Assembly: GCA_965649765.1 (NCBI GenBank)
Contig: OZ287749.1
Coordinates: forward strand, 51,026,001-51,090,000
DNA: 64,000 nucleotides
Direction of reading: 5' to 3'
From: Bispira polyomma
Taxonomy: Eukaryota
Shown here: piece after piece, positions 3,785 to 55,032 of the stretch
How the letters are laid out: each line of letters opens with the position of its first letter
Position numbering within the stretch: position 1 is the stretch's first letter
Translations under genes and position numbers: made by a program
The notes under the pieces: model-generated
What the model was told of the DNA's origin: nothing
Databases searched by the model: none
Seen by the model: the letters and a program-made list of their open reading frames with translations, nothing else

Positions 3785-4859
3785 GCTCGGTTAGCTCAGT
3801 CGGTAGAGCATCAGACTTTTGAGAAAATGAGCTTTAAGTGATCTCAGGATCAAAGGTTTGAGTCCCTTATAGGGCGAAAGCTTTTACACTGATTGATGTC
3901 AGCCCTATTTAACACACAATCTACTACAAAGACATTGGAACTGTTGTTGTGTCATGAATTCATGTTGAGATATCAGTCAGTTTTCTCCATTCCAGCCATC
4001 TTGAAGCAGATAGCAAAATCTCTTTACTTTAGTTTAAACTTTGCTGACTACAGTGGATCTTTTGCAATTCCAAATATCCAAATATATTTAGGTACAATCA
4101 TCAAGTGTGAATGTAACACTGTATTTTAGCAAATGCATTGGTGGGTATCAACACATGCAAAAGTAGTTACTCCAGACAGTGGCCTGTGAAGTGTGAATAT
4201 AACACTGTATTTTAGCAAACACATTGGTGGGCATCAACACATACAAAAGTAGTTACTTTAGATGTTACATCTCAAATAATGCCAAAGATGATATGTGTTC
4301 TAAGCCTGCTTAGCTCAGTTGGTAGAGCATTAGACTTTTTTAAGACAATGGCCTGGCAGTGATTGGAAGGTCAAGGGTTCATGTCCCTTATAGGGCGAAA
4401 GCTTTTACACTGATTGATGTCAGCCCTATTTAACACACAATCAACTACAAAGACATTGGACCTGTTGTTGTGTCATGAATTCATGTTGAGATATCAGTCA
4501 ATTTTCATCATTCTAGTCATCTTGAACGAGATAGCAAAATCTCTTTACTTTAGTTTAAACTTTGCTGACTAAAGTGGATCTTTTGCAATATTGACTATAA
4601 TTTTTTGCAATTCCAAATATCCACATATATTTATATTAAGGTACAATCATCAAGTGTGAATGTGACACTGTAATTTAGCAAACGCATTGGTGGGCATCAA
4701 CACATGCAAAAGTAGTCACTGCAGATGTTACATCTCAAATAATGCCAAAGATTGTTTGTGTTCTAAGCTGGGCTAGCTCAGTCGGTAGAGCATCAGCCCT
4801 TTTAAGACAATGGCCTTGAAGTGATCTGAGGGTCAAGGTTTCGAGTCTTGTTTTGTGCG
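3785..4859 (+). pseudogene. Three degenerate tRNA-Lys pseudogenes at the left array edge (3785-3876, 4304-4397, 4767-4859)
   Basis: Recognisable A box, anticodon arm, intron and B box, with multiple stem-breaking substitutions and indels. Confidence 0.85.
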
Positions 4860-6065
4860 ACACGTTTTACACTGATTGATAACAGCCCTACTCGACACAT
4901 AATCAACTACAACGACATTTAAAGTGTTGTTGTGTCATAAATTCATTTAGAGATATCAGTCAGTTTTATCCATTCCAGCCATCATTGAAGAGATAGCAAA
5001 GTCTCTTTACTTTAATTGAAACTTTGCTGACTACAGTGGATCTTTTTGCAATATTGACTACAATTTTTTGCAAATTCCAAATATCCAAATATATTTAGGT
5101 ACAGCCCTACTTAACACATAATCAGCTGCAAAGACATTGGAACTGTTGGAGCTGTGTCATCAATTCATGATAAGATATTAGTCACTTTTCTCCATTACAG
5201 CCATCTTTGAAGAGATACCAAAGTCTCTTTAGTTTTGTTGAAACTTTCCTGACTACAGTGGATCTTTTTGCAATATTCACTATCATTCAGCCATCATTGA
5301 AGAGATAGCAAAGTCTCTTTACTTTAATTGAAACTTTGCTGACTACAGTGGATCTTTTTGCAATATTGACTACAATTTTTTGCAAATTCCAAATATCCAA
5401 ATATATTTAGGTACAGGTTTTTGCAATATTGGAACTGTTGGAGCTGTGTCATCAATTCATGATAAGATATTAGTCACTTTTCTCCATTACAGCCATCTTT
5501 GAAGAGATACCAAAGTCTCTTTAGTTTTGTTGAAACTTTCCTGACTACAGTGGATCTTTTTGCAATATTCACTATAATTTTTCGCAATTCCATATCACAC
5601 AAAAGAATGCTCTAGATGTTTTGAGTTCAAAGCCCGGTTAGCTCTGTCGGTAGAGCATCAGACTTTTAAGACAATAACCTTGAAGTGATCTGAGGGTCAA
5701 GGGTTCGAGTCCCTTATTGGGCGAAAGATTTTACACTGATTGATGACAGCCCTACCCAACACACAATCAGCTGCAAAGACATTGCAACTGTTGTTGTTGT
5801 GTCATAAATTCATGTTAAGATATCAGTCACTATTCTCCATTACAGCCATCTTTAAAGAGATACCAAAGTCTCTCGTTTTGTTGAAACTTTGCTGACTACA
5901 GTGGATCTTTTGCAATTCCAAATATCCAAATATATTTAGGTACAATCATCAAGTGTGAATATAACACTGTATTTTAGGAAACATATCAGTGGGCATCAAC
6001 ACATACAAAAGTAGTTACTCCAGATGTCACATCTCAAATAATTCCCTAGAAGATTTCTCTTATAA

Positions 6066-6157
6066 GCCTGGTTAGCTCAGTTGGTAGACCATCAGACTTT
6101 TAAGACAATTGCCTTGAAGTGATCTGAAGGTCAAGGGTTTGAGTCCCCTTTTGGGTG
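6066..6157 (+). pseudogene. B2-class tRNA-Lys pseudogene (representative; others start at 12533, 14068, 15146, 26832, 29003, 31174, 32252, 34423, 36594, 37672, 40262, 45457, 46969)
   Basis: G24C breaks the D stem, C56T hits the B box, T64C and A66T break T-stem and acceptor-stem pairs; also C4T, C17T and C72T. Confidence 0.85.
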
Positions 6158-6425
6158 AAAGCTTTTACAATTATTGATGTCAGCCCCACTTAACACACAA
6201 TCAACAACAAAGACATTGGAACTGTTGTTGTGTCATGAATTCATGTTGAGATATCAGTCAATTATCTCCATTCCAGCCATCTGTAAGGAGGATACAGTGG
6301 ATCTTTTTGCAATATTGACTACAATTTTTTGCAATTCCAAATATCCAAATATATTTAGGTACAATCATCAAGTGTGAATGTAACACCGTATTTTAGCAAA
6401 TGCTTTGGTGGGTATCAAAACATTT

Positions 6426-6448
6426 GGGTTCGAGTCCCTTATTGGATG
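6426..6448 (+). pseudogene. C-class fragment: isolated tRNA 3' end with intact B box (representative of about 41 copies)
   Basis: gggttcgagtcccttattggatg corresponds to tRNA positions 51-73, fused directly to spacer ...gtatcaaaacattt; no 5' exon or intron. Confidence 0.9.
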
Positions 6449-7143
6449 AAAGGTTTCACAATTATTGATGACAGCCCTACTTAACACATAATCAGCTGCA
6501 AAGACATTGGAAACTGTTTGAGCTGTGTCATCAATTCATGATGAGATATTAGTCACTTTTCTCCATTACAGCCATCTTTGAAGAGATACCAAAGTCTCTT
6601 TAGTTTTGTTGAAACTTTCCTGACTACAGTGGATCTTTTTGCAATATTCACTATAATTTTTCGCAATTCCATATCACACAAAAGAATGCTCTAGATGTTT
6701 TGTCTTCAAAGCCCGGTTAGCTCAGTCGATAGAGCATCAGACTTTTAAGACAATAACCTTGAAGTGATCTGAGGGTCAAGGGTTCGAGTCCCTTATTGGG
6801 CGAAAGCTTTTACACTGATTGATGACAGCCCTACCTAACACATAATCAGCTGCAAAGACATTGCAACTGTTGTTGTTGTGTCATAAATTCATGTTAAGAT
6901 ATCAGTCGCTATTCTCCATTACAGCCATCTTTAAAGAGATACCAAAGTCTCTTGTTTTGTTGAAACTTTGCTGACTACAGTGGATCTTTTGCAATTCCAA
7001 ATATCCAAATATATTTAGGTACAATCATCAAGTGTGAATATAACACTGTATTTTAGCAAACACATCAGTGGGCATCAACACATACAAAGTCGTTACTCCA
7101 GATGTCACATCTCAAATAATGCCCTAGATGATTTTGCTTATAA

Positions 7144-7235
7144 GCCCGGTTAGCTCAGTCGGTAGAGCATCAGACTTTTAAGACAATTGCCTTGAAGTGA
7201 TATGAAGGTCAAGGGTTCGAGTCCCCTTTTGGGTG
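7144..7235 (+). pseudogene. B1-class tRNA-Lys probable pseudogene (representative; others start at 8223, 9300, 10377, 11456, 12989, 15602, 16681, 17760, 19499, 21234, 22973)
   Basis: A and B boxes retained, but C40A breaks the anticodon stem and ccccttttgggtg or cccgttttgggtg disrupts the T and acceptor stems and creates an internal T4 run. Confidence 0.8.
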
Positions 7236-10200
7236 AAAGCTTTTACAATTATTGATGTCAGCCCCACTTAACACACAATCAACAACAAAGACATTGGAAC
7301 TGTTGTTGTGTCATGAATTCATGTTGAGATATCAGTCAATTATTTCCATTCCAGCCATCTGTAAGGAGGATACAGTGGATCTTTTTGCAATATTGACTAC
7401 AATTTTTTGCAATTCCAAATATCCAAATATATTTAGGTACAATCATCAAGTGTGAATGTAACACCGTATTTTAGCAAATGCTTTGGTGGGTATCAAAACA
7501 TTTGGGTTCGAGTCCCTTATTGGATGAAAGGTTTCACAATTATTGATGACAGCCCTACTTAACACATAATCAGCTGCAAAGACATTGGAAACTGTTTGAG
7601 CTGTGTCATCAATTCATGATAAGATATTAGTCACTTTTCTCCATTACAGCCATCTTTGAAGAGATACCAAAGTCTCTTTAGTTTTGTTGAAACTTTCCTG
7701 ACTACAGTGGATCTTTTTGCCATATTCACTATAATTTTTCGCAATTCCATAACACACAAAAGAATGCTCTAGATGTTTTGTGTTCAAAGCCCGGTTAGCT
7801 CAGTCAATAGAGCATCAGACTTTTAAGACAATAACCTTGAAGTGATCTGAGGGTCAAGGGTTCGAGTCCCTTATTGGGAGAAAGCTTTTACACTGATTGA
7901 TGACAGCCCTACCTAACACATAATCAGCTGCAAAGACATTGCAACTGTTGTTGTTGTGTCATAAATTCATGTTAAGATATCAGTCGCTATTCTCCATTAC
8001 AGCCATCTTTAAAGAGATACCAAAGTCTCTTGTTTTGTTGAAACTTTGCTGACTACAGTGGATCTTTTGCAATTCCAAATATCCAAATATATTTAGGTAC
8101 AATCATCAAGTGTGAATATAACACTGTATTTTAGCAAACACATCAGTGGGCATCAACACATACAAAAGTCGTTACTCCAGATGTTACATCTCAAATAATG
8201 CCCTAGATGATTTTGCTTATAAGCCGGGTTAGCTCAGTCGGTAGAGCATCAGACTTTTAAGACAATTGCCTTGAAGTGATATGAAGGTCAAGGGTTCGAG
8301 TCCCCTTTTGGGTGAAAGCTTTTACAATTATTGATGTCAGCCCCACTTAACACACAATCAACAACAAAGACATTGGAACTGTTGTTGTGTCATGAATTCA
8401 TGTTGAGATATCAGTCAATTATTTCCATTCCAGCCATCTGTAAGGAGGATACAGTGGATCTTTTTGCAATATTGACTACAATTTTTTGCAATTCCAAATA
8501 TCCAAATATATTTAGGTACAATCATCAAGTGTGAATGTAACACCGTATTTTAGCAAATGCTTTGGTGGGTATCAAAACATTTGGGTTCGAGTCCCTTATT
8601 GGATGAAAGGTTTCACAATTATTGATGACAGCCCTACTTAACACATAATCAGCTGCAAAGACATTGGAAACTGTTTGAGCTGTGTCATCAATTCATGATA
8701 AGATATTAGTCACTTTTCTCCATTACAGCCATCTTTGAAGAGATACCAAAGTCTCTTTAGTTTTGTTGAAACTTTCCTGACTACAGTGGATCTTTTTGCC
8801 ATATTCACTATAATTTTTCGCAATTCCATAACACACAAAAGAATGCTCTAGATGTTTTGTGTTCAAAGCCAGGTTAGCTCAGTCGGTAGAGCATCAGACT
8901 TTTAAGACAATAACCTTGAAGTGATCTGAGGGTCAAGGGTTCGAGTCCCTTATTGGGCGAAAGCTTTTACACTGATTGATGAGCCCTACCTAACACATAA
9001 TCAGCTGCAAAGACATTGCAACTGTTGTTGTTGTGTCATAAATTCATGTTAAGATATCAGTCGCTATTCTCCATTACAGCCATCTTTAAAGAGATACCAA
9101 AGTCTCTTGTTTTGTTGAAACTTTGCTGACTACAGTGGATCTTTTGCAATTCCAAATATCCAAATATATTTAGGTACAATCATCAAGTGTGAATATAACA
9201 CTGTATTTTAGCAAACACATCAGTGGGCATCAACACATACAAAAGTCGTTACTCCAGATGTTACATCTCAAATAATGCCCTAGATGATTTTGCTTATAAG
9301 CCGGGTTAGCTCAGTCGGTAGAGCATCAGACTTTTAAGACAATTGCCTTGAAGTGATATGAAGGTCAAGGGTTCGAGTCCCCTTTTGGGTGAAAGCTTTT
9401 ACAATTATTGATGTCAGCCCCACTTAACACACAATCAACAACAAAGACATTGGAACTGTTGTTGTGTCATGAATTCATGTTGAGATATCAGTCAATTATT
9501 TCCATTCCAGCCATCTGTAAGGAGGATACAGTGGATCTTTTTGCAATATTGACTACAATTTTTTGCAATTCCAAATATCCAAATATATTTAGGTACAATC
9601 ATCAAGTGTGAATGTAACACCGTATTTTAGCAAATGCTTTGGTGGGTATCAAAACATTTGGGTTCGAGTCCCTTATTGGATGAAAGGTTTCACAATTATT
9701 GATGACAGCCCTACTTAACACATAATCAGCTGCAAAGACATTGGAAACTGTTTGAGCTGTGTCATCAATTCATGATAAGATATTAGTCACTTTTCTCCAT
9801 TACAGCCATCTTTGAAGAGATACCAAAGTCTCTTTAGTTTTGTTGAAACTTTCCTGACTACAGTGGATCTTTTTGCCATATTCACTATAATTTTTCGCAA
9901 TTCCATAACACACAAAAGAATGCTCTAGATGTTTTGTGTTCAAAGCCAGGTTAGCTCAGTCGATAGAGCATCAGACTTTTAAGACAATAACCTTGAAGTG
10001 ATCTGAGGGTCAAGGGTTCGAGTCCCTTATTGGGCGAAAGCTTTTACACTGATTGATGAGCCCTACCTAACACATAATCAGCTGCAAAGACATTGCAACT
10101 GTTGTTGTTGTGTCATAAATTCATGTTAAGATATCAGTCGCTATTCTCCATTACAGCCATCTTTAAAGAGATACCAAAGTCTCTTGTTTTGTTGAAACTT

Positions 10201-12100
10201 TGCTGACTACAGTGGATCTTTTGCAATTCCAAATATCCAAATATATTTAGGTACAATCATCAAGTGTGAATATAACACTGTATTTTAGCAAACACATCAG
10301 TGGGCATCAACACATACAAAAGTCGTTACTCCAGATGTTACATCTCAAATAATGCCCTAGATGATTTTGCTTATAAGCCGGGTTAGCTCAGTCGGTAGAG
10401 CATCAGACTTTTAAGACAATTGCCTTGAAGTGATATGAAGGTCAAGGGTTCGAGTCCCCTTTTGGGTGAAAGCTTTTACAATTATTGATGTCAGCCCCAC
10501 TTAACACACAATCAACAACAAAGACATTGGAACTGTTGTTGTGTCATGAATTCATGTTGAGATATCAGTCAATTATTTCCATTCCAGCCATCTGTAAGGA
10601 GGATACAGTGGATCTTTTTGCAATATTGACTACAATTTTTTGCAATTCCAAATATCCAAATATATTTAGGTACAATCATCAAGTGTGAATGTAACACCGT
10701 ATTTTAGCAAATGCTTTGGTGGGTATCAAAACATTTGGGTTCGAGTCCCTTATTGGATGAAAGGTTTCACAATTATTGATGACAGCCCTACTTAACACAT
10801 AATCAGCTGCAAAGACATTGGAAACTGTTTGAGCTGTGTCATCAATTCATGATAAGATATTAGTCACTTTTCTCCATTACAGCCATCTTTGAAGAGATAC
10901 CAAAGTCTCTTTAGTTTTGTTGAAACTTTCCTGACTACAGTGGATCTTTTTGCCATATTCACTATAATTTTTCGCAATTCCATAACACACAAAAGAATGC
11001 TCTAGATGTTTTGTGTTCAAAGCCTGGTTAGCTCAGTCGATAGAGCATCAGACTTTTAAGACAATAACCTTGAAGTGATCTGAGGGTCAAGGGTTCGAGT
11101 CCCTTATTGGGAGAAAGTTTTTACACTGATTGATGACAGCCCTACCTAACACATAATCAGCTGCAAAGACATTGCAACTGTTGTTGTTGTGTCATAAATT
11201 CATGTTAAGATATCAGTCGCTATTCTCCATTACAGCCATCTTTAAAGAGATACCAAAGTCTCTTGTTTTGTTGAAACTTTGCTGACTACAGTGGATCTTT
11301 TGCAATTCCAAATATCCAAATATATTTAGGTACAATCATCAAGTGTGAATATAACACTGTATTTTAGCAAACACATCAGTGGGCATCAACACATACAAAA
11401 GTCGTTACTCCAGATGTTACATCTCAAATAATGCCCTAGATGATTTTGCTTATAAGCCGGGTTAGCTCAGTCGGTAGAGCATCAGACTTTTAAGACAATT
11501 GCCTTGAAGTGATATGAAGGTCAAGGGTTCGAGTCCCCTTTTGGGTGAAAGCTTTTACAATTATTGATGTCAGCCCCACTTAACACACAATCAACAACAA
11601 AGACATTGGAACTGTTGTTGTGTCATGAATTCATGTTGAGATATCAGTCAATTATCTCCATTCCAGCCATCTGTAAGGAGGATACAGTGGATCTTTTTGC
11701 AATATTGACTACAATTTTTTGCAATTCCAAATATCCAAATATATTTAGGTACAATCATCAAGTGTGAATGTAACACCGTATTTTAGCAAATGCTTTGGTG
11801 GGTATCAAAACATTTGGGTTCGAGTCCCTTATTGGATGAAAGGTTTCACAATTATTGATGACAGCCCTACTTAACACATAATCAGCTGCAAAGACATTGG
11901 AAACTGTTTGAGCTGTGTCATCAATTCATGATAAGATATTAGTCACTTTTCTCCATTACAGCCATCTTTGAAGAGATACCAAAGTCTCTTTAGTTTTGTT
12001 GAAACTTTCCTGACTACAGTGGATCTTTTTGCAATATTCACTATAATTTTTCGCAATTCCATATCACACAAAAGAATGCTCTAGATGTTTTGTGTTCAAA

Positions 12101-12192
12101 GCCTGGTTAGCTCAGTCGGTAGAGCATCAGACTTTTAAGACAATAACCTTGAAGTGATCTGAGGGTCAAGGGTTCGAGTCCCTTATTGGGCG
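12101..12192 (+). tRNA. trnK-UUU: tRNA-Lys(UUU), 19-nt intron, T4 variant
   Basis: Consensus gene except C4T (extra G:U pair in acceptor stem); intact A and B boxes and T4 terminator. Confidence 0.7.
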
Positions 12193-13633
12193 AAAGCTTT
12201 TACACTGATTGATGAGCCCTACCTAACACATAATCAGCTGCAAAGACATTGCAACTGTTGTTGTTGTGTCATAAATTCATGTTAAGATATCAGTCGCTAT
12301 TCTCCATTACAGCCATCTTTAAAGAGATACCAAAGTCTCTTGTTTTGTTGAAACTTTGCTGACTACAGTGGATCTTTTGCAATTCCAAATATCCAAATAT
12401 ATTTAGGTACAATCATCAAGTGTGAATATAACACTGTATTTTAGCAAACACATCAGTGGGCATCAACACATACAAAAGTCGTTACTCCAGATGTTACATC
12501 TCAAATAATTCCCTAGAAGATTTCTCTTATAAGCCTGGTTAGCTCAGTTGGTAGACCATCAGACTTTTAAGACAATTGCCTTGAAGTGATCTGAAGGTCA
12601 AGGGTTTGAGTCCCCTTTTGGGTGAAAGCTTTTACAATTATTGATGTCAGCCCCACTTAACACACAATCAACAACAAAGACATTGGAACTGTTGTTGTGT
12701 CATGAATTCATGTTGAGATATCAGTCAATTATCTCCATTCCAGCCATCTGTAAGGAGGATACAGTGGATCTTTTTGCAATATTGACTAAAGTCTCTTGTT
12801 TTGTTGAAACTTTGCTGACTACAGTGGATCTTTTGCAATTCCAAATATCCAAATATATTTAGGTACAATCATCAAGTGTGAATATAACACTGTATTTTAG
12901 CAAACACATCAGTGGGCATCAACACATACAAAAGTCGTTACTCCAGATGTTACATCTCAAATAATTCCCTAGATGATTTTGCTAATAAGCCCGGTTAGTT
13001 CAGTCGGTAGAGCATCAGACTTTTAAGACAATTGCCTTGAAGTGATATGAAGGTCAAGGGTTCGAGTCCCCTTTTGGGTGAAAGCTTTTACAATTATTGA
13101 TGTCAGCCCCACTTAACACACAATCAACAACAAAGACATTGGAACTGTTGTTGTGTCATGAATTCATGTTGAGATATCAGTCAATTATTTCCATTCCAGC
13201 CATCTGTAAGGAGGATACAGTGGATCTTTTTGCAATATTGACTACAATTTTTTGCAATTCCAAATATCCAAATATATTTAGGTACAATCATCAAGTGTGA
13301 ATGTAACACCGTATTTTAGCAAATGCTTTGGTGGGTATCAAAACATTTGGGTTCGAGTCCCTTATTGGATGAAAGGTTTCACAATTATTGATGACAGCCC
13401 TACTTAACACATAATCAGCTGCAAAGACATTGGAAACTGTTTGAGCTGTGTCATCAATTCATGATAAGATATTAGTCACTTTTCTCCATTACAGCCATCT
13501 TTGAAGAGATACCAAAGTCTCTTTAGTTTTGTTGAAACTTTCCTGACTACAGTGGATCTTTTTGCAATATTCACTATAATTTTTCGCAATTCCATATCAC
13601 ACAAAAGAATGCTCTAGATGTTTTGTGTTCAAA

Positions 13634-13725
13634 GCCCGGTTAGCTCAGTTGGTAGAGCATCAGACTTTTAAGACAATAACCTTGAAGTGATCTGAGGGTC
13701 AAGGGTTCGAGTCCCTTATTGGGCG
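13634..13725 (+). tRNA. trnK-UUU: tRNA-Lys(UUU), 19-nt intron
   Basis: All four stems pair; only D-loop C17T differs from the array consensus. Confidence 0.88.
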
Positions 13726-16246
13726 AAAGCTTTTACACTGATTGATGACAGCCCTACCTAACACATAATCAGCTGCAAAGACATTGCAACTGTTGTTGTT
13801 GTGTCATAAATTCATGTTAAGATATCAGTCGCTATTCTCCATTACAGCCATCTTTAAAGAGATACCAAAGTCTCTTGTTTTGTTGAAACTTTGCTGACTA
13901 CAGTGGATCTTTTGCAATTCCAAATATCCAAATATATTTAGGTACAATCATCAAGTGTGAATATAACACTGTATTTTAGCAAACACATCAGTGGGCATCA
14001 ACACATACAAAAGTCGTTACTCCAGATGTTACATCTCAAATAATTCCCTAGAAGATTTCTCTTATAAGCCTGGTTAGCTCAGTTGGTAGACCATCAGACT
14101 TTTAAGACAATTGCCTTGAAGTGATCTAAAGGTCAAGGGTTTGAGTCCCCTTTTGGGTGAAAGCTTTTACAATTATTGATGTCAGCCCCACTTAACACAC
14201 AATCAACAACAAAGACATTGGAACTGTTGTTGTGTCATGAATTCATGTTGAGATATCAGTCAATTATCTCCATTCCAGCCATCTGTAAGGAGGATACAGT
14301 GGATATTTTTGCAATATTGACTACAATTTTTTGCAATTCCAAATATCCAAATATATTTAGGTACAATCATCAAGTGTGAATGTAACACCGTATTTTAGCA
14401 AATGCTTTGGTGGGTATCAAAACATTTGGGTTCGAGTCCCTTATTGGATGAAAGGTTTCACAATTATTGATGACAGCCCTACTTAACACATAATCAGCTG
14501 CAAAGACATTGGAACTGTTTGAGCTGTGTCATCAATTCATGATAAGATATTAGTAACTTTTCTTCATTACAGCCGTCTTTGAAGAGATACCAAAGTCTCT
14601 TTAGTTTTGTTGAAACTTTCCTGACTACAGTGGATCTTTTTGCAATATTCACTATAATTTTTCGCAATTCCATATCACACAAAAGAATGCTCTAGATGTT
14701 TTGGGTTCAAAGCCCGGTTAGCTCAGTCGGTAAAGCATCAGACTTTTAAGACAATAACCTTGAAGTGATCTGAGGGTCAAGGGTTCGAGTCCCTTATTGG
14801 GCGAAAGCTTTTACACTGATTGATGACAGCCCTACCTAACACACAATCAGCTGCAAAGACATTGCAACTGTTGTTGTTGTGTCATAAATTCATGTTAAGA
14901 TATCAGTCACTATTCTCCATTACAGCCATCTTTAAAGAGATACCAAAGTCTCTCGTTTTGTTGAAACTTTGCTGACTACAGTGGATCTTTTGCAATTCCA
15001 AATATCCAAATATATTTAGGTACAATCATCAAGTGTGAATATAACACTGTATTTTAGGAAACATATCAGTGGGCATCAACACATACAAAAGTAGTTACTC
15101 CAGATGTCACATCTCAAATAATTCCCTAGAAGATTTCTCTTATAAGCCTGGTTAGCTCAGTTGGTAGACCATCAGACTTTTAAGACAATTGCCTTGAAGT
15201 GATCTGAAGGTCAAGGGTTTGAGTCCCCTTTTGGGTGAAAGCTTTTACAATTATTGATGTCAGCCCCACTTAACACACAATCAACAACAAAGACATTGGA
15301 ACTGTTGTTGTGTCATGAATTCATGTTGAGATATCAGTCAATTATCTCCATTCCAGCCATCTGTAAGGAGGATACAGTGGATCTTTTTGCAATATTGACT
15401 AAAGTCTCTTGTTTTGTTGAAACTTTGCTGACTACAGTGGATCTTTTGCAATTCCAAATATCCAAATATATTTAGGTACAATCATCAAGTGTGAATATAA
15501 CACTGTATTTTAGCAAACACATCAGTGGACATCAACACATACAAAAGTCGTTACTCCAGATGTTACATCTCAAATAATTCCCTAGATGATTTTGCTAATA
15601 AGCCCGGTTAGTTCAGTCGGTAGAGCATCAGACTTTTAAGACAATTGCCTTGAAGTGATATGAAGGTCAAGGGTTCGAGTCCCGTTTTGGGTGAAAGCTT
15701 TTACAATTATTGATGTCAGCCCCACTTAACACACAATCAACAACAAAGACATTGGAACTGTTGTTGTGTCATGAATTCATGTTGAGATATCAGTCAATTA
15801 TTTCCATTCCAGCCATCTGTAAGGAGGATACAGTGGATCTTTTTGCAATATTGACTACAATTTTTTGCAATTCCAAATATCCAAATATATTTAGGTACAA
15901 TCATCAAGTGTGAATGTAACACCGTATTTTAGCAAATGCTTTGGTGGGTATCAAAACATTTGGGTTCGAGTCCCTTATTGGATGAAAGGTTTCACAATTA
16001 TTGATGACAGCCCTACTTAACACATAATCAGCTGCAAAGACATTGGAAACTGTTTGAGCTGTGTCATCAATTCATGATAAGATATTAGTCACTTTTCTCC
16101 ATTACAGCCATCTTTGAAGAGATACCAAAGTCTCTTTAGTTTTGTTGAAACTTTCCTGACTACAGTGGATCTTTTTGCAATATTCACTATAATTTTTCGC
16201 AATTCCATATCACACAAAAGAATGCTCTAGATGTTTTGTGTTCAAA

Positions 16247-16338
16247 GCCCGGTTAGCTCAGTCGGTAGAGCATCAGACTTTTAAGACAATAACCTTGAAG
16301 TGATCTGAGGGTCAAGGGTTCGAGTCCCTTATTGGGCG
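16247..16338 (+). tRNA. trnK-UUU: tRNA-Lys(UUU), 19-nt intron at 16284-16302 (array consensus copy)
   Basis: GCCCGGTTAGCTCAGTCGGTAGAGCATCAGACTTTTA/agacaataaccttgaagtg/ATCTGAGGGTCAAGGGTTCGAGTCCCTTATTGGGCG. The spliced 73-nt product folds into a full cloverleaf with anticodon TTT and discriminator G73, and closely matches eukaryotic tRNA-Lys3. Confidence 0.92.
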
Positions 16339-16343
16339 AAAGC

Positions 16344-16347
16344 TTTT
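16344..16347 (+). terminator. Pol III T4 terminator (representative; aaagctttt follows nearly every full copy)
   Basis: TTTT begins 6 nt after G73. Confidence 0.7.
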
Positions 16348-19064
16348 ACACTGATTGATGACAGCCCTACCTAACACATAATCAGCTGCAAAGACATTGC
16401 AACTGTTGTTGTTGTGTCATAAATTCATGTTAAGATATCAGTCGCTATTCTCCATTACAGCCATCTTTAAAGAGATACCAAAGTCTCTTGTTTTGTTGAA
16501 ACTTTGCTGACTACAGTGGATCTTTTGCAATTCCAAATATCCAAATATATTTAGGTACAATCATCAAGTGTGAATATAACACTGTATTTTAGCAAACACA
16601 TCAGTGGGCATCAACACATACAAAAGTCGTTACTCCAGATGTTACATCTCAAATAATGCCCTAGATGATTTTGCTTATAAGCCGGGTTAGCTCAGTCGGT
16701 AGAGCATCAGACTTTTAAGACAATTGCCTTGAAGTGATATGAAGGTCAAGGGTTCGAGTCCCGTTTTGGGTGAAAGCTTTTACAATTATTGATGTCAGCC
16801 CCACTTAACACACAATCAACAACAAAGACATTGGAACTGTTGTTGTGTCATGAATTCATGTTGAGATATCAGTCAATTATTTCCATTCCAGCCATCTGTA
16901 AGGAGGATACAGTGGATCTTTTTGCAATATTGACTACAATTTTTTGCAATTCCAAATATCCAAATATATTTAGGTACAATCATCAAGTGTGAATGTAACA
17001 CCGTATTTTAGCAAATGCTTTGGTGGGTATCAAAACATTTGGGTTCGAGTCCCTTATTGGATGAAAGGTTTCACAATTATTGATGACAGCCCTACTTAAC
17101 ACATAATCAGCTGCAAAGACATTGGAAACTGTTTGAGCTGTGTCATCAATTCATGATAAGATATTAGTCACTTTTCTCCATTACAGCCATCTTTGAAGAG
17201 ATACCAAAGTCTCTTTAGTTTTGTTGAAACTTTCCTGACTACAGTGGATCTTTTTGCAATATTCACTATAATTTTTCGCAATTCCATATCACACAAAAGA
17301 ATGCTCTAGATGTTTTGTGTTCAAAGCCCGGTTAGCTCAGTGGGTAGAGCATCAGTTTTTTAAGACAATAACCTTGAAGTGATCTGAGGGTCAAGGGTTC
17401 GAGTCCCTTATTGGGCGAAAGCTTTTACACTGATTGATGACAGCCCTACCTAACACACAATCAGCTGCAAAGACATTGCAACTGTTGTTGTTGTGTCATA
17501 AATTCATGTTAAGATATCAGTCACTATTCTCCATTACAGCCATCTTTAAAGAGATACCAAAGTCTCTTGTTTTGTTGAAACTTTGCTGACTACAGTGGAT
17601 CTTTTGCAATTCCAAATATCCAAATATATTTAGGTACAATCATCAAGTGTGAATATAACACTGTATTTTAGCAAACACATCAGTGGGCATCAACACATAC
17701 AAAAGTCGTTACTCCAGATGTTACATCTCAAATAATGCCCTAGATGATTTTACTTATAAGCCTGGTTAGCTCAGTCGGTAGAGCATCAGACTTTTAAGAC
17801 AATTGCCTTGAAGTGATATGAAGGTCAAGGGTTCGAGTCCCCTTTTGGGTGAAAGCTTTTACAATTATTGATGTCAGCCCCACTTAACACACAATCAACA
17901 ACAAAGACATTGGAACTGTTGTTGTGTCATGAATTCATGTTGAGATATCAGTCAATTATTTCCATTCCAGCCATCTGTAAGGAGGATACAGTGGATCTTT
18001 TTGCAATATTGACTACAATTTTTTGCAATTCCAAATATCCAAATATATTTAGGTACAATCATCAAGTGTGAATGTAACACCGTATTTTAGCAAATGCTTT
18101 GGTGGGTATCAAAACATTTGGGTTCGAGTCCCTTATTGGATGAAAGGTTTCACAATTATTGATGACAGCCCTACTTAACACATAATCAGCTGCAAAGACA
18201 TTGGAAACTGTTTGAGCTGTGTCATCAATTCATGATAAGATATTAGTCACTTTTCTCCATTACAGCCATCTTTGAAGAGATACCAAAGTCTCTTTAGTTT
18301 TGTTGAAACTTTCCTGACTACAGTGGATCTTTTTGCAATATTCACTATAATTTTTCGCAATTCCATATCACACAAAAGAATGCTCTAGATGTTTTGTGTT
18401 CAAAGCCCGGTTACCTCAGTCGGTAGAGCATCAGACTTTTAAGACAATAACCTTGAAGTGATCTGAGGGTCAAGGGTTCGAGTTCCTTATTGGGCGAAAG
18501 CTTTTACACTGATTGATGACAGCCCTACCTAACACATAATCAGCTGCAAAGACATTGCAACTGTTGTTGTTGTGTCATAAATTCATGTTAAGATATCAGT
18601 CGCTATTCTCCATTACAGCCATCTTTAAAGAGATACCAAAGTCTCTTGTTTTGTTGAAACTTTGCTGACTACAGTGGATCTTTTGCAATTCCAAATATCC
18701 AAATATATTTAGGTACAATCATCAAGTGTGAATATAACACCGTATTTTAGCAAATGCTTTGGTGGGTATCAAAACATTTGGGTTCGAGTCCCTTATTGGA
18801 TGAAAGGTTTCACAATTATTGATGACAGCCCTACTTAACACATAATCAGCTGCAAAGACATTGGAAACTGTTTGAGCTGTGTCATCAATTCATGATAAGA
18901 TATTAGTCACTTTTCTCCATTACAGCCATCTTTGAAGAGATACCAAAGTCTCTTTAGTTTTGTTGAAACTTTCCTGACTACAGTGGATCTTTTTGCAATA
19001 TTCACTATAATTTTTCGCAATTCCATATCACACAAAAGAATGCTCTAGATGTTTTGTGTTCAAA

Positions 19065-19156
19065 GCCCGGTTAGCTCAGTTGGTAGAGCATCAGACTTTT
19101 AAGACAATAACCTTGAAGTGATCTGAGGGTCAAGGGTTCGAGTCCCTTATTGGGCG
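19065..19156 (+). tRNA. trnK-UUU: tRNA-Lys(UUU), 19-nt intron
   Basis: Consensus except D-loop C17T. Confidence 0.88.
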
Positions 19157-22100
19157 AAAGCTTTTACACTGATTGATGACAGCCCTACCTAACACATAAT
19201 CAGCTGCAAAGACATTGCAACTGTTGTTGTTGTGTCATAAATTCATGTTAAGATATCAGTCGCTATTCTCCATTACAGCCATCTTTAAAGAGATACCAAA
19301 GTCTCTTGTTTTGTTGAAACTTTGCTGACTACAGTGGATCTTTTGCAATTCCAAATATCCAAATATATTTAGGTACAATCATCAAGTGTGAATATAACAC
19401 TGTATTTTAGCAAACACATCAGTGGGCATCAACACATACAAAAGTCGTTACTCCAGATGTTACATCTCAAATAATGCCCTAGATGATTTTACTTATAAGC
19501 CTGGTTAGCTCAGTCGGTAGAGCATCAGACTTTTAAGACAATTGCCTTGAAGTGATATGAAGGTCAAGGGTTCGAGTCCCGTTTTGGGTGAAAGCTTTTA
19601 CAATTATTGATGTCAGCCCCACTTAACACACAATCAACAACAAAGACATTGGAACTGTTGTTGTGTCATGAATTCATGTTGAGATATCAGTCAATTATTT
19701 CCATTCCAGCCATCTGTAAGGAGGATACAGTGGATCTTTTTGCAATATTGACTACAATTTTTTGCAATTCCAAATATCCAAATATATTTAGGTACAATCA
19801 TCAAGTGTGAATGTAACACCGTATTTTAGGAAATGCTTTGGTGGGTATCAAAACATTTGGGTTCGAGTCCCTTATTGGATGAAAGGTTTCACAATTATTG
19901 ATGACAGCCCTACTTAACACATAATCAGCTGCAAAGACATTGGAAACTGTTTGAGCTGTGTCATCAATTCATGATAAGATATTAGTCACTTTTCTCCATT
20001 ACAGCCATCTTTGAAGAGATACCAAAGTCTCTTTAGTTTTGTTGAAACTTTCCTGACTACAGTGGATCTTTTTGCAATATTCACTATAATTTTTCGCAAT
20101 TCCATATCACACAAAAGAATGCTCTAGATGTTTTGTGTTCAAAGCCCGGTTACCTCAGTCGGTAGAGCATCAGACTTTTAAGACAATAACCTTGAAGTGA
20201 TCTGAGGGTCAAGGGTTCGAGTTCCTTATTGGGCGAAAGCTTTTACACTGATTGATGACAGCCCTACCTAACACATAATCAGCTGCAAAGACATTGCAAC
20301 TGTTGTTGTTGTGTCATAAATTCATGTTAAGATATCAGTCGCTATTCTCCATTACAGCCATCTTTAAAGAGATACCAAAGTCTCTTGTTTTGTTGAAACT
20401 TTGCTGACTACAGTGGATCTTTTGCAATTCCAAATATCCAAATATATTTAGGTACAATCATCAAGTGTGAATATAACACCGTATTTTAGCAAATGCTTTG
20501 GTGGGTATCAAAACATTTGGGGTCGAGTCCCTTATTGGATGAAAGGTTTCACAATTATTGATGACAGCCCTACTTAACACATAATCAGCTGCAAAGACAT
20601 TGGAAACTGTTTGAGCTGTGTCATCAATTCATGATAAGATATTAGTCACTTTTCTCCATTACAGCCATCTTTGAAGAGATACCAAAGTCTCTTTAGTTTT
20701 GTTGAAACTTTCCTGACTACAGTGGATCTTTTTGCAATATTCACTATAATTTTTCGCAATTCCATATCACACAAAAGAATGCTCTAGATGTTTTGTGTTC
20801 AAAGCCCGGTTAGCTCAGTCGGTAGAGCATCAGACTTTTAAGACAATAACCTTGAAGTGATCTGAGGGTCAAAGGTTCGAGTCCCTTATTGGGCGAAAGC
20901 TTTTACACTGATTGATGACAGCCCAACAAACAAAGACATGACAAAGACATTGCAACTGTTGTTGTTGTGTCATAAATTCATGTTAAGATATCAGTCACTA
21001 TTCTCCATTACAGCCATCTTTAAAGAGATACCAAAGTCTCTTGTTTTGTTGAAACTTTGCTGACTACAGTGGATCTTTTGCAATTCCAAATATCCAAATA
21101 TATTTAGGTACAATCATCAAGTGTGAATATAACACTGTATTTTAGCAAACACATCAGTGGGCATCAACACATACAAAAGTCGTTACTCCAGATGTTACAT
21201 CTCAAATAATGCCCTAGATGATTTTGCTTATAAGCCTGGTTAGCTCAGTCGGTAGAGCATCAGACTTTTAAGACAATTGCCTTGAAGTGATATGAAGGTC
21301 AAGGGTTCGAGTCCCCTTTTGGGTGAAAGCTTTTACAATTATTGATGTCAGCCCCACTTAACACACAATCAACAACAAAGACATTGGAACTGTTGTTGTG
21401 TCATGAATTCATGTTGAGATATCAGTCAATTATTTCCATTCCAGCCATCTGTAAGGAGGATACAGTGGATCTTTTTGCAATATTGACTACAATTTTTTGC
21501 AATTCCAAATATCCAAATATATTTAGGTACAATCATCAAGTGTGAATGTAACACCGTATTTTAGCAATTGCTTTGGTGGGTATCAAAACATTTGGGTTCG
21601 AGTCCCTTATTGGATGAAAGGTTTCACAATTATTGATGACAGCCCTACTTAACACATAATCAGCTGCAAAGACATTGGAAACTGTTTGAACTGTGTCATC
21701 AATTCATGATAAGATATTAGTCACTTTTCTCCATTACAGCCATCTTTGAAGAGATACCAAAGTCTCTTTAGTTTTGTTGAAACTTTCCTGACTACAGTGG
21801 ATCTTTTTGCAATATTCACTATAATTTTTCGCAATTCCATATCACACAAAAGAATGCTCTAGATGTTTTGTGTTCAAAGCCCGGTTACCTCAGTCGGTAG
21901 AGCATCAGACTTTTAAGACAATAACCTTGAAGTGATCTGAGGGTCAAGGGTTCGAGTTCCTTATTGGGCGAAAGCTTTTACACTGATTGATGACAGCCCT
22001 ACCTAACACATAATCAGCTGCAAAGACATTGCAACTGTTGTTGTTGTGTCATAAATTCATGTTAAGATATCAGTCGCTATTCTCCATTACAGCCATCTTT

Positions 22101-22538
22101 AAAGAGATACCAAAGTCTCTTGTTTTGTTGAAACTTTGCTGACTACAGTGGATCTTTTGCAATTCCAAATATCCAAATATATTTAGGTACAATCATCAAG
22201 TGTGAATATAACACCGTATTTTAGCAAATGCTTTGGTGGGTATCAAAACATTTGGGTTCGAGTCCCTTATTGGATGAAAGGTTTCACAATTATTGATGAC
22301 AGCCCTACTTAACACATAATCAGCTGCAAAGACATTGGAAACTGTTTGAGCTGTGTCATCAATTCATGATAAGATATTAGTCACTTTTCTCCATTACAGC
22401 CATCTTTGAAGAGATACCAAAGTCTCTTTAGTTTTGTTGAAACTTTCCTGACTACAGTGGATCTTTTTGCAATATTCACTATAATTTTTCGCAATTCCAT
22501 ATCACACAAAAGAATGCTCTAGATGTTTTGTGTTCAAA

Positions 22539-22630
22539 GCCCGGTTAGCTCAGTCGGTAGAGCATCAGACTTTTAAGACAATAACCTTGAAGTGATCTGA
22601 GGGTCAAGGGTTCGAGTCCCTTATTGGGCG
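22539..22630 (+). tRNA. trnK-UUU: tRNA-Lys(UUU), 19-nt intron
   Basis: Identical to the consensus copy. Confidence 0.9.
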
Positions 22631-24249
22631 AAAGCTTTTACACTGATTGATGACAGCCCTACCTAACACATAATCAGCTGCAAAGACATTGCAACTGTTG
22701 TTGTTGTGTCATAAATTCATGTTAAGATATCAGTCGCTATTCTCCATTACAGCCATCTTTAAAGAGATACCAAAGTCTCTTGTTTTGTTGAAACTTTGCT
22801 GACTACAGTGGATCTTTTGCAATTCCAAATATCCAAATATATTTAGGTACAATCATCAAGTGTGAATATAACACTGTATTTTAGCAAACACATCAGTGGG
22901 CATCAACACATACAAAAGTCGTTACTCCAGATGTTACATCTCAAATAATGCCCTAGATGATTTTGCTTATAAGCCTGGTTAGCTCAGTCGGTAGAGCATC
23001 AGACTTTTAAGACAATTGCCTTGAAGTGATATGAAGGTCAAGGGTTCGAGTCCCGTTTTGGGTGAAAGCTTTTACAATTATTGATGTCAGCCCCACTTAA
23101 CACACAATCAACAACAAAGACATTGGAACTGTTGTTGTGTCATGAATTCATGTTGAGATATCAGTCAATTATTTCCATTCCAGCCATCTGTAAGGAGGAT
23201 ACAGTGGATCTTTTTGCAATATTGACTACAATTTTTTGCAATTCCAAATATCCAAATATATTTAGGTACAATCATCAAGTGTGAATGTAACACCGTATTT
23301 TAGCAAATGCTTTGGTGGGTATCAAAACATTTGGGTTCGAGTCCCTTATTGGATGAAAGGTTTCACAATTATTGATGACAGCCCTACTTAACACATAATC
23401 AGCTGCAAAGACATTGGAAACTGTTTGAGCTGTGTCATCAATTCATGATAAGATATTAGTCACTTTTCTCCATTACAGCCATCTTTGAAGAGATACCAAA
23501 GTCTCTTTAGTTTTGTTGAAACTTTCCTGACTACAGTGGATCTTTTTGCAATATTCACTATAATTTTTCGCAATTCCATATCACACAAAATAATGCTCTA
23601 GATGTTTTGTGTTCAAAGCCTGGTTAGCTCAGTCGGTAGAGCATCAGACTTTTAAGACAATAACCTTGAAGTGATCTGAGGGTCAAGGGTTCGAGTTCCT
23701 TATTGGGCGAAAGCTTTTACACTGATTGATGACAGCCCTACCTAACACATAATCAGCTGCAAAGACATTGCAACTGTTGTTGTTGTGTCATAAATTCATG
23801 TTAAGATATCAGTCGCTATTCTCCATTACAGCCATCTTTAAAGAGATACCAAAGTCTCTTGTTTTGTTGAAACTTTGCTGACTACAGTGGATCTTTTGCA
23901 ATTCCAAATATCCAAATATATTTAGGTACAATCATCAAGTGTGAATATAACACTGTATATAACACTGTATTCATCCCTTATTGGATGAAAGGTTTCACAA
24001 TTATTGATGACAGCCCTACTTAACACATAATCAGCTGCAAAGACATTGGAAACTGTTTGAGCTGTGTCATCAATTCATGATAAGATATTAGTCACTTTTC
24101 TCCATTACAGCCATCTTTGAAGAGATACCAAAGTCTCTTTAGTTTTGTTGAAACTTTCCTGACTACAGTGGATCTTTTTGCAATATTCACTATAATTTTT
24201 CGCAATTCCATATCACACAAAAGAATGCTCTAGATGTTTTGTGTTCAAA

Positions 24250-24323
24250 GCCCGGTTAGCTCAGTTGGTAGAGCATCAGACTTTTAAGACAATAACCTTG
24301 AAGTGATCTGAGGGTCAAGGGTT
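24250..24323 (+). pseudogene. 3'-truncated tRNA-Lys created by a 79-bp tandem duplication
   Basis: Runs from G1 to T55, then restarts at tcaaagcccgg. Confidence 0.85.
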
Positions 24324-24328
24324 TCAAA

Positions 24329-24420
24329 GCCCGGTTAGCTCAGTCGGTAGAGCATCAGACTTTTAAGACAATAACCTTGAAGTGATCTGAGGGTCAAGGG
24401 TTCGAGTCCCTTATTGGGCG
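24329..24420 (+). tRNA. trnK-UUU: tRNA-Lys(UUU), 19-nt intron
   Basis: Identical to consensus, but the normal 5' flank is replaced by the truncated copy. Confidence 0.82.
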
Positions 24421-25738
24421 AAAGCTTTTACACTGATTGATGACAGCCCTACCTAACACACAATCAGCTGCAAAGACATTGCAACTGTTGTTGTTGTGTC
24501 ATAAATTCATGTTAAGATATCAGTCACTATTCTCCATTACAGCCATCTTTAAAGAGATACCAAAGTCTCTTGTTTTGTTGAAACTTTGCTGACTACAGTG
24601 GATCTTTTGCAATTCCAAATATCCAAATATATTTAGGTACAATCATCAAGTGTGAATATAACACTGTATTTTAGCAAACACATCAGTGGGCATCAACACA
24701 TACAAAAGTCGTTACTCCAGATGTTACATCTCAAATAATGCCCTAGATGATTTTGCTTTTACAATTATTGATGTCAGCCCCACTTAACACACAATCAACA
24801 ACAAAGACATTGGAACTGTTGTTGTGTCATGAATTCATGTTGAGATATCAGTCAATTATTTCCATTCCAGCCATCTGTAAGGAGGATACAGTGGATCTTT
24901 TTGCAATATTGACTACAATTTTTTGCAATTCCAAATATCCAAATATATTTAGGTACAATCATCAAGTGTGAATGTAACACCGTATTTTAGCAAATGCTTT
25001 GGTGGGTATCAAAACATTTGGGTTCGAGTCCCTTATTGGATGAAAGGTTTCACAATTATTGATGACAGCCCTACTTAACACATAATCAGCTGCAAAGACA
25101 TTGGAAACTGTTTGAGCTGTGTCATCAATTCATGATAAGATATTAGTCACTTTTCTCCATTACAGCCATCTTTGAAGAGATACCAAAGTCTCTTTAGTTT
25201 TGTTGAAACTTTCCTGACTACAGTGGATCTTTTTGCAATATTCACTATAATTTTTCGCAATTCCATATCACACAAAAGAATGCTCTAGATGTTTTGTGTT
25301 CAAAGCCCGGTTAGCTCGGTCGGTAGAGCATCAGACTTTTAAGACAATAACCTTGAAGTGATCTGAGGGTCAAGGGTTCGAGTCCCTTATTGGGCGAAAG
25401 CTTTTACACTGATTGATGACAGCCCTACCTAACACATAATCAGCTGCAAAGACATTGCAACTGTTGTTGTTGTGTCATAAATTCATGTTAAGATATCAGT
25501 CACTATTCTCCATTACAGCCATCTTTAAAGAGATACCAAAGTCTCTTGTTTTGTTGAAACTTTGCTGACTACAGTGGATCTTTTGCAATTCCAAATATCC
25601 AAATATATTTAGGTACAATCATCAAGTGTGAATATAACACTGTATTTTAGCAAACACATCAGTGGGCATCAACACAGACAAAAGTAGTTACTCCAGATGT
25701 TACATCTCAAATAATGCCCTAGATGATTTCTGTTCCAA

Positions 25739-25830
25739 GCCTGGTTAGCTCAGTCGGTAGAGCATCAGACTTTTAAGACAATAACCTTGAAGTGATCTGA
25801 GAGTCAAGGGTTCGAATCCCTTATTGGGCG
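25739..25830 (+). tRNA. trnK-UUU: tRNA-Lys(UUU), intron, T4/A45/A59 variant
   Basis: Stems pair (three G:U in acceptor stem); boxes intact. Confidence 0.62.
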
Positions 25831-26397
25831 AAAGCTTTTACACTGATTGATGACAGCCCTACCTAACACAGAATCAGCTGCAAAGACATTGCAACTGTTG
25901 TTGTTGTGTCATAAATTCATGTTAAGATATCAGTCACTATTCTCCATTACAGCCATCTTTAAAGAGATACCAAAGTCTCTTGTTTTGTTGAAACTTTGCT
26001 GACTACAGTGGATCTTTTGCAATTCCAAATATCCAAATATATTTAGGTACAATCATCAAGTGTGAATATAACACCGTATTTTAGCAAATGCTTTGGTGGG
26101 TATCAAAACATTTGGGTTCGAGTCCCTTATTGGATGAAAGGTTTCACAATTATTGATGACAGCCCTACTTAACATATAATCAGCTGCAAAGACATTGGAA
26201 CTGTTTGAGCTGTGTCATCAATTCATGATAAGATATTAGTCACTTTTCTCCATTACAGCCATCTTTGAAGAGATACCAAAGTCTCTTTAGTTTTGTTGAA
26301 ACTTTCCTGACTACAGTGGATCTTTTTGCAATATTCACTATAATTTTTCGCAATTCCATATCACACAAAAGAATGCTCTAGATGTGTTGAGTTCAAA

Positions 26398-26489
26398 GCC
26401 TGGTTAGCTCAGTTGGTAGAGCATCAGACTTTTAAGACAATAACCTTGAAGTGATCTGAGGTTCAAGGGTTCGAGTCCCTTATTGGGCT
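26398..26489 (+). pseudogene. A''-class tRNA-Lys variant with G46T and discriminator G73T (others start at 28569, 30740, 33989, 36160, 37238, 45023)
   Basis: Boxes intact but gaggttc and gggct replace gagggtc and gggcg; function doubtful. Confidence 0.65.
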
Positions 26490-27475
26490 AAAGCTTTTAC
26501 ACTGATTGATGCCAGCCCTACCTAACACATAATCAGCTGCAAAGACATTGCAACTGTTGTTGTTGTGTCATAAATTCATGTTAAGATATCAGTCACTATT
26601 CTCCATTACAGCCATCTTTAAAGAGATACCAAAGTCTCTTGTTTTGTTGAAACTTTGCTGACTACAGTGGATCTTTTGCAATTCCAAATATCCAAATATA
26701 TTTAGGTACAATCATCAAGTGTGAATATAACACTGTATTTTAGGAAACATATCAGTGGGCATCAACACATACAAAAGTAGTTACTCCAGATGTCACATCT
26801 CAAATAATTCCCTAGAAGATTTCTCTTATAAGCCTGGTTAGCTCAGTTGGTAGACCATCAGACTTTTAAGACAATTGCCTTGAAGTGATCTGAAGGTCAA
26901 GGGTTTGAGTCCCCTTTTGGGTGAAAGCTTTTACAATTATTGATGTCAGCCCCACTTAACACACAATCAACAACAAAGACATTGGAACTGTTGTTGTGTC
27001 ATGAATTCATGTTGAGATATCAGTCAATTATTTCCATTCCAGCCATCTGTAAGGAGGATACAGTGGATCTTTTTGCAATATTGACTACAATTTTTTGCAA
27101 TTCCAAATATCCAAATATATTTAGGTACAATCATCAGGTGTGAATGTAACACCGTATTTTAGCAAATGCTTTGGTGGGTATCAAAACATTTGGGTTCGAG
27201 TCCCTTATTGGATGAAAGGTTTCACAATTATTGATGACAGCCCTACTTAACACATAATCAGCTGCAAAGACATTGGAACTGTTTAAGCTGTGTCATCAAT
27301 TCATGATAAGATATTAGTCACTTTTCTCCATTACAGCCATCTTTGAAGAGATACCAAAGTCTCTTTAGTTTTGTTGAAACTTTCCTGACTACAATGGATC
27401 TTTTTGCAATATTCACTATAATTTTTCGCAATTCCATATCACACAAAAAAATGCTCTAGAAGTTTTCTGTTCAAA

Positions 27476-27567
27476 GCCCGGTTAGCTCAGTCGGTAGAGC
27501 ATCAGACTTTTAAGACAATAACCTTGAAGTGATCTGAGGGTCAAGGGTTCGAGTCCCTTATTGGGCG
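27476..27567 (+). tRNA. trnK-UUU: tRNA-Lys(UUU), 19-nt intron
   Basis: Identical to consensus. Confidence 0.9.
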
Positions 27568-27909
27568 AAAGCTTTTACACTGATTGATGACAGCCCTACC
27601 TAACACAGAATCAGCTGCAAAGACATTGCAACTGTTGTTGTTGTGTCATAAATTCATGTTAAGATATCAGTCACTATTCTCCATTACAGCCATCTTTAAA
27701 GAGATACCAAAGTCTCTTGTTTTGTTGAAACTTTGCTGACTACAGTGGATCTTTTGCAATTCCAAATATCCAAATATATTTAGGTACAATCATCAAGTGT
27801 GAATATAACACTGTATTTTAGCAAACACATCAGTGGGCATCAACACAGACAAAAGTAGTTACTCCAGATGTTACATCTCAAATAATGCCCTAGATGATTT
27901 CTGTTCCAA

Positions 27910-28001
27910 GCCTGGTTAGCTCAGTCGGTAGAGCATCAGACTTTTAAGACAATAACCTTGAAGTGATCTGAGGGTCAAGGGTTCGAATCCCTTATTGGGC
28001 G
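27910..28001 (+). tRNA. trnK-UUU: tRNA-Lys(UUU), intron, T4/A59 variant
   Basis: Stems pair; B box GGTTCGAATCC. Confidence 0.72.
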
Positions 28002-54955: not shown

Positions 54956-55032
54956 CAGACATTCGAACTGTTGAAATAATAATTTTAAAGCACTCCAGGT
55001 TTTACATTTGAATGGTGATCCATATTCTTCAA

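Follow-up and report, generated by a model that had tools for sequence, protein, structure and literature searches.

A putative TSEN-type intron of 19 nt in tandemly arrayed tRNA-Lys(UUU) genes of an animal genome

In the available parts of the literature, introns of eukaryotic tRNA genes are described as lying at the 37/38 site and as having an anticodon-intron (A-I) pair (PMC10275265), with lengths of 6-133 nt (PMC4090602). The endonuclease TSEN recognises its substrate by the tRNA body and by measuring distance (PMC10275265); in fly cells the A-I pair is needed in vivo, and an over-strong helix lowers splicing (PMC6614914). The human intron-bearing tRNAs named in the part available are Tyr-GUA, Ile-UAU, Arg-UCU and Leu-CAA (PMC10275265), and 16 intron-bearing tRNA genes are given for Drosophila. 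In a survey of 576 eukaryotic genomes, the animal tRNAs named as rich in introns are Tyr, Ile-UAU, Leu-CAA and Arg-UCU, with Lys absent from the text in the portion available (PMC12168002); figure S7 of that survey, which covers 45 tRNA species per anticodon, may bear on the novelty of the case reported here. Among eukaryotes the spectrum of tRNA introns is patchy, introns having been both gained and lost (PMC4090602), and in S. cerevisiae every gene of the tRNA-Lys(UUU) family is intron-bearing (PMC6582322, PMC10275265, as far as available). No report of Lys(UUU) introns in animals was found in the literature searched, which comprised few subscription papers and had GtRNAdb outside its scope, and the available parts of PMC8450103, PMC10886601, PMC2770079 and bioRxiv 10.1101/2020.08.25.266106 do not address them.

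The current study concerns a window of 64,000 nucleotides, i.e. the whole stretch of DNA that was analysed, in which an earlier note, made from the sequence alone, had recognised a 19-nt insert one base 3' of the anticodon of a tRNA-Lys(UUU) gene. The gene at 16247-16338 bears this out, scoring 60 bits with Rfam and keeping 21/21 stem pairs and 16/16 conserved positions, and its sequence is shared by 10 copies of the array to which it belongs. The features are as follows.

16247..16338, + strand: tRNA-Lys(UUU) gene with intact cloverleaf (Rfam RF00005, 60 bits)
16247..16283, + strand: 5' exon (positions 1-37), from the sequence; the same exon occurs in six dispersed genes with 0-1 differences
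16278, + strand: C32, from the sequence
16280-16282, + strand: anticodon TTT, from the sequence
16283, + strand: A37, from the sequence
16284..16302, + strand: intron of 19 nt at site 37/38, boundary set by the dispersed copies L031 and L036
16300, + strand: G at intron position -3, partner of C32 in the A-I pair (6/6 own intron sequences, 101/101 related introns)
16303..16338, + strand: 3' exon (positions 38-73), from the sequence
16344..16347, + strand: run of four T, likely a Pol III terminator of minimal length (runs of 4-11 T in dispersed copies)
3785..55070, + strand: head-to-tail array of intron-bearing tRNA-Lys(UUU) copies, about 51 kb (92 ungapped, 4 gapped or truncated, 40 T-arm fragments)
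2200..2240, + strand: edge relic with the last intron bases and the 3' exon only (BLAST)

From standard tRNA numbering, we take the Pol III A box to lie at about 16254-16265 in the 5' exon and the B box at about 16318-16326 in the 3' exon. In the window copy alone the junction can be shifted by one base, as intron and 3' exon both start with A. The junctions of the dispersed genes L031 and L036 are compatible with 37/38 only, and the intron was therefore placed at this site. When ARAGORN was run with the intron option, 38 window copies were called as Lys(ttt) with a 19-nt intron, whereas without it only four genes were called in the window, three of them named Leu. In related genes found elsewhere (L086, L092, L096, L113, L114 and others), use of the intron option did not prevent mis-calls, namely Stop(tta), Val(tac) or Leu. 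Such genes may thus be mis-annotated or hidden in invertebrate genomes.

The genome, probably that of a spiralian invertebrate (1,035 Mb, or 1.04 Gb, in 75 contigs), was searched with a gapped pattern of the gene, which gave 52 matches, 46 in the array and six dispersed. Two of the dispersed genes lie on contig C2 (one of them 2.3 kb past the end of the window), three on C4 and one on C6. Their exons differ from the window copy by 0-1 base, and runs of T follow position 73 (5-11 T in five of the six, four in L035). Their introns measure 21, 20, 19, 19, 19 and 24 nt and fall into four families; the 19-nt introns are related (13-16 of 19 positions identical between different variants), and those of other lengths share 8-14 positions in gapped alignments. 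Among the six distinct intron sequences of this genome, position -3 is G, -4 is A and -5 is a purine in 6/6, and these positions stand opposite C32, U33 and U34. Constant exons, divergent inserts and a constant A-I base would be the look of selected, spliced genes.

The earlier note had proposed that the intron G at -3 (16300) can pair with C32 (16278), which holds in all six own introns, and that the 3' AAGU of the intron pairs with A31 to U34. The latter complementarity is present in the window copy, but its outer pair is not conserved: U at intron position -2, opposite A31, was found in only 3/6 own intron sequences and 16/55 related ones, and the predicted partner of A31 is U39. Pairing of A31 with the intron was accordingly rejected.

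In most respects the insert has the features of a TSEN-type intron. It lies at 37/38, it is short (19 nt in the window copy, 19-24 nt in the dispersed genes), pyrimidine 32 can pair with the third-last intron base as C32:G(-3) in every own and related intron, and the exons form an intact mature tRNA with all stems and conserved bases present. Genes for TSEN and for the exon ligase were found in the genome. A bulge-helix-loop with a 3-nt 3' bulge is formable, having a 4-bp helix and -26.3 kcal/mol when the A-I pair is forced, but it is not the favoured structure. The best ViennaRNA fold of the window precursor (-29.0 kcal/mol) kept the cloverleaf and paired C32 with the last intron base in a slipped register, and forcing the A-I pair cost 2.7 kcal/mol. 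The predicted probability of the A-I pair was 0.05 in the window precursor, 0.00-0.05 in four of the five dispersed precursors folded and 0.94 in L036, i.e. its register was favoured in one of the six precursors. A weak free helix is not disqualifying, since TSEN measures distance and an over-strong helix lowers splicing in fly cells; the predicted folds simply lend the A-I register no support. Judged from the sequence, the insert can be classed as a canonical TSEN-type intron, with every testable feature present except a favoured fold.

Other classes were ruled out. A spliceosomal intron does not fit an insert of 19 nt that ends in TG and whose first and last bases vary among copies. An archaeal bulge-helix-bulge does not fit either, as forcing the A-I pair leaves a 1-nt bulge and further pairing on the 5' side and not a 3-nt bulge. 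The genes are not tRNA-derived SINEs, as they terminate with a run of T beyond position 73; the actual SINE family of the genome has, compared to the Lys(UUU) genes, a different D arm and a shared body.

The TSEN catalytic domain (PF01974) was found at two loci on C11, and RtcB (PF01139) was represented by eight exon-sized matches at one locus on C4, which together cover the model. An intronless Lys-TTT gene with the mature sequence, which the earlier note had suggested looking for, was not found in the genome searches. The exact exon-exon junction had no match in the genome. A loose 3' pattern gave 297 matches, not one of them exact, and the best 100 include every match with 1-2 mismatches; the six TTT-AA rows with 1-2 mismatches and one three-mismatch row were all SINE copies lacking an acceptor stem, and none of 13 SINE loci scanned with Rfam reached the tRNA cut-off. 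A loose 5' pattern gave 43 matches, none of them exact, namely 40 intronless Lys(CTT) genes (which serve as a positive control), one SINE and two sequences that are not tRNAs. Exact matches to the 5' exon, among the best 100 of 150 rows, belonged in 63/63 cases either to the array (57) or to the six intron-bearing dispersed genes. Thus no intact intronless Lys(UUU) gene was found in four pattern searches of an assembly that may be incomplete. A CUU anticodon cannot read AAA. Given both points, splicing of the Lys(UUU) intron is likely to be obligatory for the decoding of AAA in this animal.

Most of the 297 loose 3' matches look to belong to a dispersed, tRNA-headed SINE family (L041, L059-L078, L248), in which the anticodon arm and variable loop resemble spliced tRNA-Lys(UUU) and the D arm differs. 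This family could be a retro-copy of the spliced tRNA, or could derive from another tRNA; its body recalls, as we take it, the cores of Meta/Deu-type SINEs.

The reading that we favour, with a probability of roughly 0.88, is that the insert is a eukaryotic tRNA intron of the ordinary kind. TSEN would excise it and RtcB would join the exons, and its removal would be needed for the reading of AAA codons because no intronless gene was found. In the proposed pathway, Pol III would transcribe the gene from its A and B boxes, and TSEN would bind the tRNA body and find its cut sites through distance and the A-I pair, cleaving after A37 and before A38. RtcB would then ligate the exons, perhaps with circularisation of the intron as in Drosophila. 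The intron is likely to be old in the lineage, and selection probably keeps only what splicing needs (G at -3, A at -4, a purine at -5), while its length and middle drift. The claim of the earlier note that this is a real TSEN-type intron is well supported by the six dispersed genes, whose introns have diverged around a constant A-I pair and between conserved exons, by the lack of any intronless gene in the searches made, and by the presence of TSEN and RtcB genes.

Compared to the canonical TSEN/RtcB introns of human and Drosophila, those described here are alike in site, short length, the C32:G(-3) pair, an intact tRNA body, intron variation within a family and the enzyme genes, and differ in isotype, Lys not being reported for the former. 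That the isotype is unusual for animals, as had been proposed, agrees with the available parts of the sources, in which Lys is absent from the intron-bearing tRNAs named for humans and for animals at large. The tRNA-Lys(UUU) genes of S. cerevisiae share the isotype and the presence of an intron in every gene of the family. Yeast, however, uses the ligase Trl1, whereas an RtcB gene is present here, and its family introns are near-identical, whereas four families occur here. Virus-like and archaeal-like contigs (five viral, two named GVMAG) carry Lys(UUU) genes with the same site and G at -3, but their exons differ from the window gene at 8 or more positions and some have an encoded CCA end. Tandem tRNA arrays and tRNA-derived satellites show the same head-to-tail amplification, higher-order repeats and decaying copies; the unit of the present array differs in carrying an intron-bearing gene, and two thirds of its copies are damaged.

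Metagenome contigs were scanned for this anticodon arm followed by a gap of 8-38 nt, and at least 127 stretches were obtained, of which 126 loci were read. The pattern finds intron-bearing genes of one stem type only, and so gives neither a ratio to intronless genes nor counts by phylum. The 126 loci held at least 101 distinct introns of 10-32 nt, and 101/101 had G at -3. As the pattern left this base free and the background share of G is 0.23, the conservation of G(-3) lies beyond chance. In 70 loci, at least 56 distinct genes lay within seven exon differences of the window gene; among the matches listed, these comprised 22 exon types and 55 distinct introns, with G at -3 in 55/55, and the commonest exon type (18 loci) was one base from the window exons. 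A run of four T was present at 71/72 gene places of the 56 near-identical genes.

Some of these contigs carry protein-coding sequence. The genes in L096 and L141 adjoin an ORF for a Cip/Kip-type inhibitor (20 homologues for the L096 protein), and that in L135 lies between ADAMTS-type thrombospondin exons. We take Cip/Kip-type and ADAMTS-type domains to be animal, and the three contigs are on this basis likely to be animal. Among 110 ORFs flanking the metagenome genes, 103 had no Pfam match. In L093 (121-1380), an animal-type intron-bearing tRNA-Lys(UUU) gene stands beside an ORF with bacterial-type hisI and rsmH (MraW) domains, and this contig may be chimeric; the other contigs with near-identical genes bear no such marker. 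In the tRNA gene clusters of L091, L138, L145 and L156, Lys(UUU) genes with an intron are found alongside others without one. The more distant scan matches look archaeal or viral, five of them being on viral contigs (L243-L247), where Lys(UUU) genes have short 37/38 introns with G at -3. Candidate introns in Asn(GTT) genes were rejected: what ARAGORN had called as such in L120, L186 and L204 proved to be Tyr genes, and neither of the two matches in the genome under study is a tRNA.

The intron family is thus likely to be widespread among invertebrates and overlooked, and not peculiar to this genome. The novelty that the earlier note had made dependent on such introns not being widespread in invertebrates looks at least partly lost, given the 56 distinct near-identical genes in metagenome contigs.

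The census of the array rests on BLAST with the gene 16247-16338 as query, which found 137 places in the window, all on the + strand; Rfam RF00005 gave 91 tRNA matches there. Of the 92 ungapped copies (92 nt each), 28 are intact and 64 are damaged, i.e. have broken stems or have lost conserved bases, and 10 copies are identical in their exons to four of the dispersed genes. Spacings are commonly 434 and 645 (291+354) nt, and the 434 and 291+354 nt units combine into blocks of about 1.08, 2.17 and 2.59 kb. These higher-order repeats co-amplify intact genes, pseudogenes and the 40 T-arm fragments. A 79-nt internal duplication lies at 24250/24329, and an unrelated 147-nt tandem repeat (3.9 copies) at 2724-3302 of the window, just left of the array.

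The ungapped copies hold seven intron variants, all ending in AAGTG, and the five classes of intron middle that had been described all exist in the array. Retention of the terminal AGTG, which was said to extend to relics, was found in 92/92 ungapped copies and in three relics (2149, 4304 and 4767), whereas the deletion relic at 52560 lacks it, having C in place of G(-3). Variants numbered 13 in the first 13 nt of the intron against one in the last 6 (P about 0.04, computed post hoc). This retention is weak evidence of selection, because most of the copies that keep the intron end have broken exons; as proof of selection it was rejected, the 64 damaged copies of 92 having the same intron end, and shared recent descent explains most of it. 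The proposal that the intron is under selection therefore stands in so far as the dispersed genes keep their exons and the A-I pair, and not on the strength of the array and its relics.

At C4:88.086 Mb (L035/L253) lies one intact gene whose flank matches the array unit over about 350 nt (79% identity), followed 0.8 kb downstream by a truncated second copy. This locus is likely to be a relative of the array's founder. The array itself, which is related to this locus, is likely to have arisen recently, when the 19-nt intron family was amplified in tandem, and to consist mostly of decaying copies. Tandem tRNA arrays were also observed elsewhere in the genome: Lys(CTT) with Ala(AGC) and Ser(AGA) at C8:47.31-47.41 Mb, Lys(CTT) repeats at C7:48.22 Mb with an Asn gene called beside one copy, and arrays of unassigned isotype at C3:9.93 and 12.4 Mb and at C11:11.52 Mb. 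The genome-wide Rfam census of tRNAs scored 63 of 154,496 candidates.

Twenty-four sequencing runs were matched to the window. No run on record as RNA among them contained more than 0.05 of its words; only X22-X24 contained at least half, and the share of 0.05-0.08 in the other 21 does not count as evidence. X22-X24 come from one organism, their kind is not on record, and they look like DNA. Contigs of X22, X24, X1 and X11 were compared with the 3' part of the intron, the 3' exon and its flank. Those of X22 and X24 correspond to genomic sequence flanking the dispersed genes. Two short pieces came from X1 and nothing from X11, and no joint across the intron was readable. In X22, pieces of the array had a depth of 454-1463, compared to 16.7 for a piece of a single-copy relative. 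This depth fits a real array, and X22 may be source data.

The 64 damaged copies and the 40 T-arm fragments amplified alongside raise the possibility that the intron family is real but that the array, including the copy at 16247, is a silent tRNA-derived satellite, with the six dispersed genes alone supplying tRNA-Lys(UUU). This would concern the copy and not the type of intron. It agrees with the copy's run of only four T, compared to 5-11 T in five of the six dispersed genes, but the dispersed L035 likewise has only four, 28 array copies are intact, 10 of them equal the exons of four dispersed genes, and the genome keeps other tRNAs in tandem arrays. A silent array is on balance doubtful, though it deserves to be kept in mind. 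That the insert is not spliced at all, the copies being dead or repurposed and the working tRNA-Lys(UUU) coming from an intronless gene that is absent from the assembly or escaped the searches, is in contrast very improbable. No spliced RNA was seen in the runs examined, the A-I register is not the one favoured at minimum energy, and the pattern search lists covered the best 100 of 297 and the best 100 of 150 matches. Against this, 40 intronless Lys(CTT) genes did come up in these searches, G(-3) was present in 101/101 introns among the matches listed, and exons that are constant across three chromosomes beside diverged introns would be the signature of selected, spliced genes.

It is also conceivable that the intron is retained for a task beyond being spliced, either for an intron-dependent modification of tRNA-Lys(UUU) or as free or circular intron RNA. 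Every intact gene that was found has the intron, as do 22 exon types on metagenome contigs. Modifications that depend on an intron have been described for Tyr, Ile, Phe and Leu tRNAs (PMC10485636, PMC12168002, in the parts available), and the late phase of respiratory growth is slower in yeast from which the Lys(UUU) intron is missing. The same yeast study, as far as available, found the intron to be dispensable and the tRNA level unchanged on its loss (PMC6582322), and neither the length (19-24 nt here, 10-32 nt elsewhere) nor the middle of the intron is conserved. Such a function appears unlikely, and the reading as an ordinary intron removed by TSEN and RtcB is retained.

While this mechanism is textbook, the value of the case is comparative. 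The lists of intron-bearing animal tRNAs rest mostly on model species, and the present genome and the animal-like contigs add Lys(UUU), for which the intron-bearing genes are here apparently the sole source. As a bolder and improbable extension, tRNA-Lys(UUU) might be a fifth, overlooked intron-bearing family of animals, with an intron that is ancient and obligatory for AAA decoding throughout the spiralians and perhaps in further invertebrate phyla, that the vertebrate and insect models have lost, and that is kept for modification or as intron RNA. If the intron did extend across phyla, the ancestral set of animal introns would be redrawn, and a natural comparison with and without the intron would be available for the role of tRNA introns.

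Several further observations were made in the genome. An open frame of 544 codons on the - strand of the window (60198-61832) has no Pfam match and three homologues at 35-52% identity, and is probably a large exon. The mitochondrial genome (L209-L210, on C75; 15,503 nt) is read with the invertebrate code, and its genes are divided between the two strands, with seven tRNAs clustered after cox3. Its COX1 is at most 76% identical to any of the 120 matches listed, the best being annelids at 74-75%, and forms a long, unplaced branch in a tree of 37 rows. On C13, a Hox cluster includes a Post2-like homeodomain and another that is followed by KLTGP, which we take to be the spiralian signatures of Post2 and Lox5.
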